A stretch of 3,795 nt of DNA from Enterobacteria phage P-EibD: the sequence record AF151675.1; one strand, given 5' to 3'. Of the stretch, positions 24 through 3,795 are shown piece by piece. Every line of letters starts with the position of its first letter. Position 1 is the stretch's first letter. The position numbers and the translations under genes were made by a program. The notes below the pieces were generated by a model that worked only from the letters and a program-made list of their open reading frames with translations, did not search any database and had not been told where the DNA came from.

Positions 24-611
24 ATGAACATGAATGTGGAAAAAATAAGCAATCCGCAATGGGCAGATAAAGAGCACACTGCTGTCAATTGCATGGTGAA
101 GTTTGAGCACATTGAGCAGGCGGTTCCTTTCACTGCAACAGCCAGCGATACCGAAGCATACGGGCGGGATATTTATGCCGCTTGTCTGAGAGGAGAGGCC
201 GGTGAAATTGCAGAATATGCACAGCCATCCATCAGCCCGGAAAAAGCCAGAGAACTCAAAACCGCCGGGATCAACGCCTGGCGTAATGCGATGGAAGCGG
301 CGAACTACACGTTTGAGCACAATGGGCGTAAATGGGACTACGGGAAGTCAACGCAGACGCGTCTTGAGCCGTCGGTGGCGGCAGCGAAAGCGGGGAAACT
401 GCCGGAGGCGTTTTTCTGGACGGATGCGGACAATAATGACGTACCGATGGACGCTGAAACACTGATTGCTCTGAGTGCTGCTGCAGAGCAGGCGATGTTT
501 ACCAAAGGGATGGAAATCCACGTCCGGCAGCGCACCATGAAGAAAGAGCTGGAAAAGCTGACCAGTGCGGATGAGATACTGGCATACAGGGTTGGCTGGG
601 CACAGGAATAA
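24..611 (+). CDS. Hypothetical prophage-associated protein, 195 aa; possibly a tail-fibre assembly/chaperone-like protein, but this is a guess from position only
   Basis: Uninterrupted 195-codon ORF ending TAA 609-611, with enterobacterial-looking codon usage and no N-terminal signal peptide or hydrophobic segment. AGGAG at 19-23 abuts the ATG at 24 and is better spaced (6 nt) for the in-frame ATG at 30, so the true start may be 30. The ATG at 24 overlaps a TGA at 25-27 in another frame (ATGA), which may mark the end of an upstream gene. I do not recognise the protein family. Confidence 0.7.
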   Translation: MNMNVEKISNPQWADKEHTAVNCMVKFEHIEQAVPFTATASDTEAYGRDIYAACLRGEAGEIAEYAQPSISPEKARELKTAGINAWRNAMEAANYTFEHNGRKWDYGKSTQTRLEPSVAAAKAGKLPEAFFWTDADNNDVPMDAETLIALSAAAEQAMFTKGMEIHVRQRTMKKELEKLTSADEILAYRVGWAQE

Positions 612-974: not shown

Positions 975-1052
975 ATGAGTAAAAAGTTTACAATGACACT
1001 CCTGTCATCTTCTCTGGCCGGGCTTCTGGTGATGAGTGGTGGAGTGAGTGCG
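975..1052 (+). other. Signal peptide coding segment of the adhesin (26 aa, predicted cleavage after VSA)
   Basis: Basic n-region MSKK, hydrophobic core [16 protein letters not shown], and c-region SGGVSA with small residues at -3 and -1. Confidence 0.65.
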
Positions 1053-2510
1053 CAGAATGGTACATATTCAGTGTTGCAGGATGATTCGCAGAAGAGCGGA
1101 CCGGTTAAATATGGCAGCACCTATGAAGTTGTAAAGACAGTCGATAATGGTAACTTCAGATACGAAGTAAAAGAGAAAAAAAACGACAAGAGGACACTTT
1201 TCAAATTTGATTCAGAAGGTAATGTGACCGTTAAAGGTAAGGGTATCACCCATACACTTCATGACCCGGCGCTGAAAGATTTTGCAAGGACTGCTGAGGG
1301 TAAAAAAAATGAACAAAATGGAAATACTCCACCTCACAAGCTGACAGACAGTGCTGTTCGTGGCGTGTACAACAAGGTGTATGGCCTGGAAAAAACAGAA
1401 ATTACAGGTTTCAGCGTCGAAGATGGGGAGAATGGGAAGGTTTCTCTGGGTAGCGATGCGAAAGCCTCTGGTGAGTTCTCAGTAGCTGTTGGTAACGGTG
1501 CTAGGGCTACAGAAAAAGCGTCAACAGCAGTGGGCTCATGGGCTGCTGCGGACGGTAAACAAAGTACAGCTCTGGGAGTGGGAACATATGCTTATGCAAA
1601 TGCATCTACAGCCCTGGGAAGCGTTGCATTTGTTGATAACACGGCTACATATGGCACGGCAGCAGGTAACCGAGCCAAAGTTGATAAAGATGCAACAGAA
1701 GGTACTGCGTTAGGGGCAAAGGCAACAGTAACAAATAAAAACAGTGTTGCATTAGGTGCTAATTCTGTAACCACTCGTGATAACGAAGTTTATATTGGCT
1801 ATAAAACCGGAACCGAAAGCGATAAAACATACGGCACCCGTGTTCTTGGTGGCTTAAGCGATGGTACGCGTAACAGTGATGCGGCAACTGTTGGGCAGTT
1901 AAACCGGAAAGTTGGTGGAGTTTATGATGATGTTAAAGCCCGTATAACTGTTGAGTCAGAGAAGCAGAAAAAATACACAGACCAGAAGACCAGCGAGGTT
2001 AACGAAAAAGTTGAAGCCCGCACAACGGTTGGTGTTGATTCCGACGGAAAACTTACCCGTGCAGAAGGTGCGACTAAAACTATCGCCGTCAATGACGGTC
2101 TCGTTGCTCTGTCTGGCAGAACAGACCGTATTGATTATGCAGTTGGTGCCATTGATGGCCGTGTCACCCGTAACACGCAATCCATTGAGAAAAACAGCAA
2201 GGCGATTGCAGCCAATACCCGTACGCTGCAGCAACATTCAGCACGTCTGGACAGCCAGCAGCGCCAGATTAATGAAAACCACAAGGAAATGAAGCGTGCA
2301 GCAGCACAGTCTGCGGCCCTGACAGGTCTGTTCCAGCCGTACAGTGTGGGTAAATTCAACGCCACGGCAGCGGTTGGTGGTTACAGCGACCAGCAGGCAC
2401 TGGCAGTGGGTGTGGGTTACCGCTTCAACGAGCAGACCGCAGCGAAAGCAGGCGTGGCATTCAGTGATGGCGATGCCTCCTGGAACGTTGGTGTGAACTT
2501 CGAGTTTTAA
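975..2510 (+). CDS. eibD: Eib-family immunoglobulin-binding trimeric autotransporter adhesin (YadA-like), 511 aa; paralogue assignment eibD is tentative
   Basis: 511-codon ORF. The N-terminus [29 protein letters not shown] is a typical Sec signal peptide. Residues ~155-276 carry degenerate 14-residue SxAxG repeats typical of a YadA-like head. A neck-like motif [21 protein letters not shown] is followed by a long heptad-rich stalk (aa ~311-440). The C-terminus [15 protein letters not shown]...[34 protein letters not shown] is glycine/aromatic-rich and ends in F, as in YadA-type beta-barrel anchors. The length matches what I recall for EibD (511 aa), but I cannot distinguish EibC/D/E/G without alignment. 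Confidence 0.9.
1437..1802 (+). repeat. Degenerate tandem repeats encoding the YadA-like head (about 14-residue SxAxG units)
   Basis: Successive units in the translation: [83 protein letters not shown]. Boundaries are approximate. Confidence 0.55.
2295..2510 (+). other. YadA-type C-terminal membrane anchor (translocator) coding segment
   Basis: The last ~70 residues show alternating hydrophobic/small residue beta-strand patterning and a terminal aromatic residue, consistent with the 4-strand-per-monomer anchor of trimeric autotransporters. Confidence 0.75.
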
Positions 2511-2535
2511 TTGCTGAAGGTGACATGAAGTATGA

Positions 2536-2567
2536 CGGCAGGCGCAGGACTCTGGTCTGCCGTTTTT
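2536..2567 (+). terminator. Rho-independent terminator downstream of the adhesin gene
   Basis: Stem CGGCAG (2536-2541) pairs with CTGCCG (2557-2562) around a 15-nt loop, followed directly by TTTTT (2563-2567); it lies 26 bp after the TAA stop. Confidence 0.55.
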
Positions 2568-2598
2568 CATGGGGCATAAAAAACAGGAAGGTGCTGCG

Positions 2599-3069
2599 AT
2601 GAAGGTGATTCTGGCTACCAGGAACCGCTATCTGGAGTATGGTCTGCAGGCGTTACTGAAGGGGCACAGTGTGATACTGGCGAGGGAGTTTTTCCTGCCG
2701 GAGAACCGCCGTTATATCCCGGACTTTGACGAATCCTGGCTGATAATCAGTGATGGCCTGCTGGGCAGGCTGATGCGCTGTATGTTCCAGGGGCGTCATT
2801 TTCTGCAACTGGATGCGGAGTTGCTCCGTGATGGTGAGCAGATAAGTGATGCCATACACAACGGCGTCTGGACGTATAACAGTGCTGCCCGCCCGCTGAC
2901 GATGTCAGAGATGGTGGTGATGTTCGGTTATGTCTACCGCCAGTCGAGACCCTGCCGCCTTGCCAGTGAAATGGGTATCCACACGAAGACGGTGAATACC
3001 TTTCTGTATACGGGAATGGCGAAAAACGGGCTGTATGGTGTGAGCGTCAGACGGCTTGTTGGTGCCTGA
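2599..3069 (+). CDS. LuxR-type HTH transcriptional regulator with a degenerate receiver-like N-terminus (GadE/YhiF(DctR)-like), 156 aa
   Basis: AGGAAGG at 2585-2591 sits 7 nt before the ATG at 2599. The longer ORF from ATG 2569 starts inside the upstream terminator T-tract with no SD, so 2599 is preferred. The C-terminal LTMSEMVV...LASEMGIHTKTVNTFLYTGMAKNGL fits the LuxR/FixJ HTH pattern. The N-terminal MKVILATRNRYLEYGLQALL...WLIISDG resembles the truncated receiver-like region of GadE/YhiF proteins as I recall them. Stop TGA at 3067-3069. Confidence 0.75.
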   Translation: MKVILATRNRYLEYGLQALLKGHSVILAREFFLPENRRYIPDFDESWLIISDGLLGRLMRCMFQGRHFLQLDAELLRDGEQISDAIHNGVWTYNSAARPLTMSEMVVMFGYVYRQSRPCRLASEMGIHTKTVNTFLYTGMAKNGLYGVSVRRLVGA

Positions 3070-3251
3070 TGGCGGTCCTGCCGGATGCGCAGAATCTTCT
3101 GATAGTTCAGAAGGTGCAGATGATGAATAAAGAGAGATGCCGGACAATCGGAAGAAAACGTTACACCACAGGCGCAATGTGCTTCATGCTGTTTGTGTGG
3201 CTTGGTGGTGTGCTGGCTCTTGTTGCTACAGCTGCGGTGGTAATGCAGTAA
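3069..3251 (+). CDS. Small predicted membrane protein (60 aa from ATG 3069, or 43/42 aa from ATG 3120/3123) with one C-terminal transmembrane helix
   Basis: The ATG at 3069 overlaps the regulator stop (TGATG), suggesting translational coupling. Alternatively AAGGTG (3111-3116) precedes ATG 3120/3123. A basic stretch (KERCRTIGRKRY) is followed by a ~21-residue hydrophobic segment (AMCFMLFVWLGGVLALVATAAVV). Stop TAA 3249-3251. Family not recognised. Confidence 0.4.
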   Translation: MAVLPDAQNLLIVQKVQMMNKERCRTIGRKRYTTGAMCFMLFVWLGGVLALVATAAVVMQ

Positions 3252-3275
3252 AAAAAGGGGAGCAACATGCTCCCC
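3250..3275 (-). terminator. Rho-independent terminator oriented for minus-strand transcripts (possibly bidirectional)
   Basis: Perfect 7-bp GC-rich stem GGGGAGC (3257-3263) / GCTCCCC (3269-3275) with loop AACAT. On the minus strand the hairpin is followed by seven T (complement of A 3250-3256). On the plus strand the hairpin is preceded by the A-tract and followed by GACCAGAAG, which is not U-rich. Confidence 0.6.
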
Positions 3276-3313
3276 GACCAGAAGAAAGACGTTTGATAAC
3301 AATTAGTGAGTTG

Positions 3314-3388
3314 TTACGTCTTGTCCAGAATATCATAGCAACACTCTGTTGCAGTGATACCGATCGCGATTTTAGCGAATTCCATCAT
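3314..3388 (-). CDS. Candidate small ORF (24 aa, MMEFAKIAIGITATECCYDILDKT); could instead be the body of a small RNA
   Basis: Hand translation of the minus strand gives ATG ATG at 3388-3383 preceded by GGGGA, and a TAA stop at 3316-3314. It lies 37 bp upstream (in minus-strand sense) of the minus-oriented terminator. It is very short and I found no convincing promoter. Confidence 0.2.
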   Translation of the reverse strand: MMEFAKIAIGITATECCYDILDKT

Positions 3389-3431
3389 AAATCCCCTGAT
3401 TTTTAAGCCTGAAGCAGTCAAAGGAATTTCT

Positions 3432-3795
3432 ATGCCCTATATCGATATCACCACGATGCGTGGGATGATGCCGCGCGTTGTGACATCCATGCTGCCCGAG
3501 CATTCCGCTGTACTGGCGGAGGACTGCCATTTCCGGTTTGGTGTTATTACACCAGAACGTCAGATATCCGGGGTTGAGAAAACATTCACAATTAAGCCAA
3601 AAACAATTTTTCATTACCGTGACGATTTCTGGTTTGCATGGCCGGATGTGGTGGATGTGATCCGCAGTCCGATCGCTCAGGACCCCCACGGGCGTATTTA
3701 CTACACTGACGGGCGTTTTCCTAAAGTGACGGATGCGACCATTGCCACAAAAGGGGACGGGAATCACCCGACATCATCGTATCGTCTTGGGATCC
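3432..3795 (+). CDS. Hypothetical protein, 5' partial (first 121 codons; continues beyond the window end)
   Basis: AGGA at 3422-3425 sits 6 nt before the ATG at 3432. The frame stays open to the window end (MPYIDITTMRGMMPRVVTSMLPEHSAVLAEDCHFRFGVITPERQISGVEKTFTIKPKTIFHYRDDFWFAWPDVVDVIRSPIAQDPHGRIYYTDGRFPKVTDATIATKGDGNHPTSSYRLGI), with protein-like composition and no signal peptide. The antisense 131-aa ORF (3372-3767) is Cys/His/Arg/Trp-rich and looks spurious. Family not recognised. Confidence 0.6.
   Translation, partial: MPYIDITTMRGMMPRVVTSMLPEHSAVLAEDCHFRFGVITPERQISGVEKTFTIKPKTIFHYRDDFWFAWPDVVDVIRSPIAQDPHGRIYYTDGRFPKVTDATIATKGDGNHPTSSYRLGI

Follow-up and report, generated by a model that had tools for sequence, protein, structure and literature searches.

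A conserved small membrane-protein gene at the end of the Eib adhesin cassette of Escherichia, with a revised start codon and a candidate regulatory association

Introduction

The nearest analogue, by architecture, of the small gene described here is rmpD of Klebsiella pneumoniae (rmpADC). That mobile virulence locus governs a surface structure and has the order rmpA-rmpD-rmpC, with the gene for a LuxR-like regulator immediately preceding the one for the 58-residue membrane protein RmpD, which is described as modulating the chain length of the capsule polysaccharide (PMC12648545). The gene in question lies on 3,795 nucleotides (nt) of DNA from Enterobacteria phage P-EibD (record AF151675.1; this whole stretch is hereafter the window), a cloned fragment of an Escherichia coli prophage with GGATCC at its end. 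A first-pass annotation, made from the letters of the window, had drawn a 60-codon open reading frame (ORF) overlapping the stop codon of a presumed regulator gene, ORF-156, and proposed that it might encode an unrecognised membrane accessory of that regulator. As in the rmp locus, the gene for the small protein adjoins one for a LuxR-like regulator, and the two belong to a mobile virulence locus. RmpD binds the capsule kinase Wzc, its helix is N-terminal and its C-terminus is basic; the small protein has the reverse domain order, and the surface structure associated with it is an adhesin.

Two other comparisons are instructive. SafA and MgrB, functional analogues in their capacity of kinase connectors, are small inner-membrane proteins that cross the membrane once; their target is the sensor kinase PhoQ, which they influence mostly by way of a periplasmic segment (PMC12648545). 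Unlike both, the small protein has no periplasmic segment, with a single residue past its helix. The safA gene is co-transcribed with a regulator gene, ydeO. Pairs of extracytoplasmic function (ECF) sigma and anti-sigma factors likewise place a helix-turn-helix (HTH) gene ahead of a gene, often joined by a stop/start overlap, for a membrane protein with a cytoplasmic N-terminus, and the Prokaryotic Genome Annotation Pipeline (PGAP) names a 34%-identical homologue of ORF-156 a 'sigma factor-like helix-turn-helix DNA-binding protein'. However, anti-sigma domains are several helices long, the cytoplasmic part of the small protein (~17 residues) is far too short for one, and the N-terminal domain of ORF-156 is receiver-like and not sigma region 2. 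The small protein does have the size (below ~50 residues) and the one membrane-spanning helix of the general class of small single-pass inner-membrane proteins; family membership holds for PHROG 9340 and the orf-60 genes only.

The gene is present in earlier records. It corresponds to "orf-60", listed with no function in the GenBank records of Sandt and Hill, AF151091 (P-EibA) and AF151674 (P-EibC), where orf-60A and orf-60C are 77% identical to the ORF of the window across 60 codons and likewise follow orf-156. With both orf-156 and orf-60 already annotated in P-EibA and P-EibC, this is a known hypothetical gene and not an unseen one. The protein also matches PHROG 9340 (function unknown) over its full length (E = 9.6e-30), residues 18-60 aligning to profile positions 1-43. 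The gene that the first-pass annotation did not recognise is thus on record, though still uncharacterised: scans of the small protein with Pfam, NCBIfam (E <= 1) and PADLOC returned no match, including none to a known connector in Pfam or NCBIfam, and no study of either gene was found in literature on orf-60/orf-156, eib regulators or small membrane proteins near autotransporters. The regulation of Eib adhesins is little understood, and ORF-156 and the small gene, both easy to delete, are two candidates that could supply the regulation or accessory activity still lacking. Overall, the first-pass observation is partly confirmed and its interpretation partly supported; the contributions made here are a corrected start, proof of constraint, co-occurrence at the level of the cassette and a reoriented hairpin. 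These extend the list of small membrane proteins modestly, with no new principle, and provide a good experimental lead for Eib regulation.

Results

The evidence for coding comes from comparison of DNA from about a dozen lineages, gathered from IMG/VR, NCBI, ENA and RefSeq (individual loci carry L numbers below). Pairwise comparison of the last 32 codons in 10 lineages gave ratios of non-synonymous to synonymous substitution (dN/dS) of 0.04-0.24, at synonymous divergence (dS) ranging from 0.7 to saturation, and the variable sites are distributed 16/9/28 over codon positions 1/2/3. Within the best-conserved 20 codons (RKRYTTGAMCFMLFVWLGGV), the window and P-EibC differ by 5 synonymous and 0 non-synonymous changes. 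Such patterns argue for strong purifying selection on a genuine translated gene, which the small ORF almost certainly is, as the first-pass annotation had supposed with some reservation. The combination of nearly saturated synonymous sites and a constrained core excludes a purely DNA- or RNA-level explanation. A gene on the minus strand was also considered as the source of the conservation and ruled out, the variation being concentrated at plus-strand third positions. Confidence is high that this is a real gene with a membrane protein as its product. The 60-codon ORF is present as first drawn, and its reading frame is conserved in part: the last 32 codons are constrained, but the first 17 tolerate frame-breaking indels.

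The comparison also places the start codon. An in-frame ATG stands 14-17 codons before the AMCF motif in 11/11 tabulated lineages, giving products of 39-42 residues; in the window ATG 3123 is its counterpart, and another ATG stands at 3120. Predicted anti-Shine-Dalgarno pairing is -4.7 kcal/mol at 3120/3123 and as low as -7.4 kcal/mol in other lineages. The orf-60 GenBank records use the 60-codon start, whereas PGAP (WP_256737684.1, the 42-residue form) and PHROG use a 42/43-codon start, and it is the latter that is backed here. ATG 3123, giving 42 residues, is the likely functional start.

In the databases searched, the small-protein family is confined to Escherichia. A word-indexed search of 5.8 billion proteins yielded 28 clusters, and all those with a named source came from E. 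coli. When 1.84 billion representative proteins were searched exhaustively with a profile, 10 matches were returned, the weakest being a 1215-residue protein; the eight that were read are obvious relatives, some of them truncated or frameshifted. One protein, P0029 (216 residues), looked like a natural fusion of ORF-156 and ORF-60 and proved to be a frameshifted read-through in the wrong frame.

Both structural features named by the first-pass annotation, a basic juxtamembrane segment and a single C-terminal transmembrane helix, are borne out. The 23-residue hydrophobic stretch (residues 37-59 in the 60-residue numbering, kept here) has a position-independent Hessa sum of -2.1 kcal/mol and a mean Kyte-Doolittle value of 2.4, and the Hessa sum of the equivalent segment in six lineages lies between -2.1 and -3.0 kcal/mol. 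AlphaFold2, run with a small family alignment, predicts a single continuous helix with a predicted local distance difference test (pLDDT) score > 90 in the transmembrane part; in the 42-residue form the helix comprises residues 4-41. The N-terminal flank carries a net charge of +5, and the C-terminal flank is a single Q in the window and one Q or R in all lineages. The topology is predicted to be N-in on the basis of the positive-inside rule: the basic N-terminus of ~17 residues would be cytoplasmic, leaving practically no periplasmic domain. Conservation of the protein is greatest in the N-terminal half of the helix, AMCFMLFVWLGG. In the alignments the invariant part consists of a membrane-interface motif, Y-T-T-G-A-M, together with the first helix half (CFMLFVWLGG), and the juxtamembrane motif is conserved as [KR][KR]xY[TI][TA]GAM. 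The helix contains a small-xxx-small spacing (G46...A/T50), and its second half would seem to need hydrophobicity only.

The distribution of the gene was tabulated per locus as the presence of an adhesin anchor, an ORF-156 homologue and the small-protein core. By this comparison the small gene is the third and last member of a mobile Escherichia cassette in which an Eib-type adhesin is followed by ORF-156 and then by the small protein. Where an adhesin anchor lies directly upstream of ORF-156 and downstream DNA is available, the small gene is present in 12/12 lineages. These cassettes occupy prophage ends beside dinI, chromosomal junctions and islands flanked by the insertion sequences IS21/IS3, as well as a contig that also bears plasmid-type (RAQPRD) and ShlB-type genes, and the full cassette occurs in 62/5,426 complete E. 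coli genomes. ORF-156 homologues found without an adhesin have no small gene; these are L075 (Escherichia sp. MOD1-EC7003), the intact 180-residue homologues of the L031-41 type, and the distant plasmid homologues L064 and L065. When a single genome was scanned for each species, just one further Escherichia species had the regulator, without adhesin or small gene.

The small gene is never retained alone and is absent or decayed wherever the adhesin has gone. Its persistence is tied to the whole adhesin cassette and not to the regulator alone, since ORF-156 homologues persist without it. That the small gene tracks the adhesin cassette is a suggestive rather than a strong reading of these loci, because its losses represent few (three or four) independent events. 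Shiga toxin (Stx) phages of the 933W/Sakai Sp5 type bear a scar of the cassette (window 3218-3795; L005 = 933W, 2380-2640), made up of an N-truncated ORF-156 homologue (L0123), the TGATG, the last 12 orf-60 codons (MLLVATAAMIMQ, then the stop) and the same hairpin, and in Stx2_EH2011 the orf-60 homologue has an internal deletion. The small gene of L009/L010 (647-829) is a mosaic, with a P-EibC-type 5' half and a window-type 3' half (compared with the window and L001), and the adhesin-anchor lineages are shuffled relative to those of ORF-156 and the small gene. Taken together, the mosaic and the shuffling indicate that recombination within the cassette is common; the mosaic implies that it also occurred inside the conserved core. 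A paralogous cassette in L066 (1838-4879) holds an apparently frameshifted adhesin, a 70-residue ORF and two LuxR-like genes, one of them 43% identical to ORF-156; its terminal position is occupied by a different small membrane protein of 62 residues, from the YqaE/Pmp3 family.

The small gene always lies directly 3' of ORF-156. In the window the last letter of the ORF-156 stop TGA (3067-3069) is also the first of ATG 3069-3071, forming the TGATG overlap that had suggested translational coupling. The overlap exists, but its ATG heads an unconstrained extension and the conserved start follows the regulator stop by 51 nt, so that coupling does not hold as drawn for the window. The theme of co-expression with the regulator is real nonetheless, for in four other lineages the conserved start abuts or overlaps the ORF-156 stop: by -4 nt (ATGA) in L020/L069 and L060/L061 and by -1 nt in L058, with a +5 nt gap in L071. 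The ORF-156 homologues of these lineages are 170-175 residues long. The gap is 43-67 nt in the types of the window, P-EibA/C, L018, L062, L021, L029 and L073. A scan of 2400-3795 found no promoter-like site. The stop/start overlaps, the terminator-like hairpin at 2544-2567 and the lack of a promoter-like site together make ORF-156 and the small gene look like one co-transcribed pair, which may be fed by (partial) read-through from eib. A stem_loop is annotated at the site equivalent to 2544-2567 in both AF151674 and AF151091, and the hairpin is a possible attenuator between the adhesin and the regulator/small-protein pair.

ORF-156 itself belongs to PHROG 6585 (E = 4e-99, function unknown) and has no match in Pfam, NCBIfam or PADLOC; Pfam GerE was not detected. 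Its assignment as a regulator, made in the first-pass annotation, finds support at the level of predicted fold and not from Pfam or NCBIfam. AlphaFold2 with a family alignment (mean pLDDT 86) predicts an alpha/beta domain of four strands and, after it, a helical domain, and the top Foldseek matches are all of the NarL/FixJ type (StyR, LiaR, DesR, FixJ, EvgA, VraR, RcsB and VpsT; E 1e-3 to 2e-2, probability up to 0.99). The family profile matches the HTH of LuxR-family chains among PDB sequences, weakly (E = 0.08), and PGAP calls homologues 34% identical to ORF-156 on E. coli plasmids "LuxR C-terminal-related" or "sigma factor-like HTH". The regulator status of ORF-156 is drawn from these three sources: predicted fold, weak profile match and names of homologues. 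The receiver-like domain is truncated to four beta strands; positions 7-9 are T-R-N and not acidic, and there is a conserved D52 where strand 3 ends. A LuxR-type DNA-binding protein that works independently of phosphorylation is the probable identity of ORF-156, as judged from the models. When ORF-156 was compared by tblastn with 72,556 plasmids, matches occurred in Escherichia records only, with none to non-Escherichia plasmid genes. The 34%-identical homologues on IncF plasmids stand directly after very large hypothetical genes in L064 (1-4070) and directly after a hemolysin-activation (ShlB-type) gene in L065 (1130-4512); a small membrane ORF was looked for after both and none was found. 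The regulator family may generally be attached to type V secretion loci.

Discussion

The best explanation as a whole is that the gene encodes a real 42-residue membrane protein that serves as an accessory of the regulatory module of the cassette, an explanation for which belief and doubt are about evenly balanced. Without a periplasmic domain, and with only ~17 variable residues in the cytoplasm, the protein would have to act through contacts within the membrane and at its interface, that is, through helix-helix contacts and the membrane-interface motif. There it could tether or modulate ORF-156, or connect ORF-156 to a host membrane sensor, and adhesin expression would then respond to envelope state or growth conditions. 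Once the adhesin was lost, the small gene would be without a role and decay, and ORF-156 could persist. The regulatory association fits the stop/start overlaps, the separate ORF-156/small-gene unit and the growth-dependent expression of EibG, which responds to static versus shaken growth (PMC4352079); rmpADC, SafA and MgrB offer precedents. The specific mechanism, whether tethering or modulating ORF-156 or linking it to a host sensor, is a tentative proposal and should be regarded as doubtful.

A bolder form of the same idea, which is unlikely, makes ORF-156 and the 42-residue protein a minimal membrane-tethered switch in which the tail-anchored helix would hold or release the regulator at the inner membrane, or plug it into a host sensor, on cues from the envelope or surface. 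If true, such a switch would account for the expression of Eib adhesins in static and not shaken growth, and would represent a new design for signalling by two proteins, the one in the membrane lacking any extracytoplasmic domain.

Several observations weigh against a regulatory role. Intact ORF-156 homologues occur without the small gene (L031-41, L075 and the plasmid homologues), so the small protein is not an obligate partner. The co-variation of ORF-156 and small-protein lineages is also explained by simple linkage, and no promoter-like site was found for the pair within the region scanned. The cytoplasmic segment of ~17 residues, variable except next to the membrane, offers a regulator only a small area to bind.

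The co-occurrence with the adhesin is in fact better accommodated if the small protein is a helper of the adhesin, acting independently of ORF-156 while the trimeric autotransporter is exported or assembled at the Sec/YidC stage in the inner membrane, or buffering the envelope stress that the adhesin causes. All 12 of the 12 intact cassettes carry the small gene, every adhesin-less locus lacks it or holds a decayed copy even where ORF-156 is intact, and the paralogous cassette of L066 also ends in a small membrane protein, albeit of the YqaE/Pmp3 family. SadB, a known helper of autotransporters, is a lipoprotein that faces the periplasm. A protein with one residue beyond its helix, and so practically no periplasmic domain, offers no structural rationale for this activity; moreover, recombination has shuffled the adhesin-anchor and small-protein lineages such that no specific pairing is apparent, and the losses that underlie the co-occurrence number only three or four independent events. 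An adhesin helper is accordingly judged rather unlikely.

Another alternative concerns the product and not its role: the 60-residue form could be the real product, made by termination and reinitiation at the TGATG. The overlap is present and the frame open, the P-EibA/P-EibC type has the same ATG, L062 has an in-frame GTG at the overlap, and 60 residues are annotated in the GenBank records. The 17 upstream codons (3069-3119) nevertheless behave as non-coding sequence. Indels of 2, 3 and 1 nt separate the window, L018/19 and L062, so that the first ~six codons are read in different frames among lineages; at the overlap L062 offers only a GTG, and L018/L019 no start codon; and the extension is wholly absent in seven further lineages. 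The window and P-EibC differ in the extension by four non-synonymous and no synonymous changes, and anti-Shine-Dalgarno pairing at ATG 3069 (-2.8 kcal/mol) is the same as the mean of the window (-2.8). Production of the 60-residue form as the functional protein is therefore quite unlikely, and should it also be made by reinitiation, its extra residues would not be under constraint. The frame of the small ORF is also open for 33 further codons upstream (2970-3068), where it differs from the frame of ORF-156, whose last part it overlaps; the P-EibA/C and L062 lineages share this openness, which is probably due to chance.

As the protein is small, hydrophobic and prophage-borne, an autonomous function for the mobile element deserves mention, in the form of a type I toxin-like membrane toxin, a holin-like protein or a superinfection-exclusion peptide. 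The sequence after the stop codon bears on this directly. The hairpin at 3257-3275 has 8 base pairs (bp), six of them G-C, and a folding energy of -15.4 kcal/mol (z = -5.6; 0/200 shuffles fold as well), so the strong hairpin of the first-pass annotation is present. It is not, however, a canonical terminator of the plus strand. An A7 run (3250-3256) lies 5' of it and the plus strand has no U-run; across the lineages compared the A-run is always found before the hairpin and a T-run never after it, which makes it a canonical intrinsic terminator for the minus strand only. On the plus strand it would have at most a stabilising or weak terminating role, U-less as it is. An outer stem of GGGGAG/CTCCCC is found after the stop codon in types L021, L018/L062, L060/61, L058 and that of the window, as well as in the Stx-phage scars, and P-EibA and P-EibC have other sequence there. 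The outer six pairs are invariant, the seventh is C-G, T-A or T.G depending on the lineage, and the loops vary; this covariation was read from the folds and not formally counted, as differing loop lengths put the MAFFT alignment out of register. In L018/L062 a convergent dinI ends ~37 nt from the hairpin. The hairpin is read here as the 3' boundary element of the cassette, which would insulate it from convergent transcription.

A convergent-strand terminator right after the stop recalls some toxin-antitoxin layouts with a 3' overlap, but because a minus-strand terminator ends its transcripts before they reach the small gene, no antisense overlap is implied. The window has no Rfam match (E <= 1), no PADLOC match and no minus-strand promoter-like site, the small gene lies outside any lysis cassette, and the three-gene unit also occurs in non-phage contexts. 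The gene decays once the cassette is lost (933W, Stx2_EH2011) and is never kept alone, which disfavours an autonomous toxin or exclusion function, and this alternative is very improbable.

The least probable alternative, with hardly any likelihood left to it, is a spurious ORF whose conservation would stem from recent shared ancestry or from constraint on the DNA or RNA, for although PGAP omits the gene in several RefSeq genomes, its synonymous sites are near saturation, its protein core is invariant, its variation falls mostly at third positions and its start codon keeps a fixed distance in 11/11 tabulated lineages. Genome annotation pipelines frequently miss the small gene, and the start codon of the original records is corrected here. 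Among complete RefSeq genomes, an intact gene of 41-42 codons was left unannotated by PGAP in L067 (2325-2450), L068 (2325-2450) and L069 (2317-2445); in other genomes PGAP does annotate it, for example as WP_256737684.1 in L003.

Layout of the window

The features of the window are collected in Table 1. The adhesin at its centre matches the immunoglobulin-binding protein EibD of known structure (PDB 2xqh) with E = 2e-154.

Table 1. Coordinates, strand and basis of assignment of features in the window
Feature	Position	Strand	Basis or remark
DUF4376 tail-fibre-assembly-like gene	24-611		Pfam and PHROG
eibD, trimeric autotransporter adhesin, 511 residues, cassette gene 1 of 3	975-2510	+	Pfam YadA_anchor and YadA_head
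Terminator-like hairpin and T-run in the eibD/ORF-156 gap	2544-2567	+	Consensus scan
ORF-156, presumed transcription regulator	2599-3069	+	
Small ORF of 60 codons as first drawn	3069-3251	+	
5' extension in frame with the small ORF; by comparison an intercistronic spacer	3069-3122	+	Indels, no conserved start
Shine-Dalgarno sequence AAGGTG, inside the spacer	3111-3116	+	
Conserved 42-codon coding sequence (orf-60 / PHROG 9340 / WP_256737684.1)	3123-3251 (stop 3249-3251)	+	
Transmembrane-helix segment, residues 37-59 of the 60-residue numbering	3177-3245	+	Hydropathy, AlphaFold2, invariant columns
A7 run, then 8-bp GC-rich hairpin; 3' edge of the cassette	3250-3275		Hairpin and U7 on the minus strand
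Internal-virion-protein-like gene, start only	from 3432		Pfam and PHROG

Between the 3257-3275 hairpin and the next gene, the minus strand carries a mini-ORF, MMEFAKIAIGITATECCYDILDKT, at 3314-3385. In 933W the first 12 codons of this mini-ORF and the DNA preceding them are nearly identical, and the C-terminus is different. The mini-ORF could be coding, or could be kept merely as the 5' leader of the downstream gene on the plus strand.

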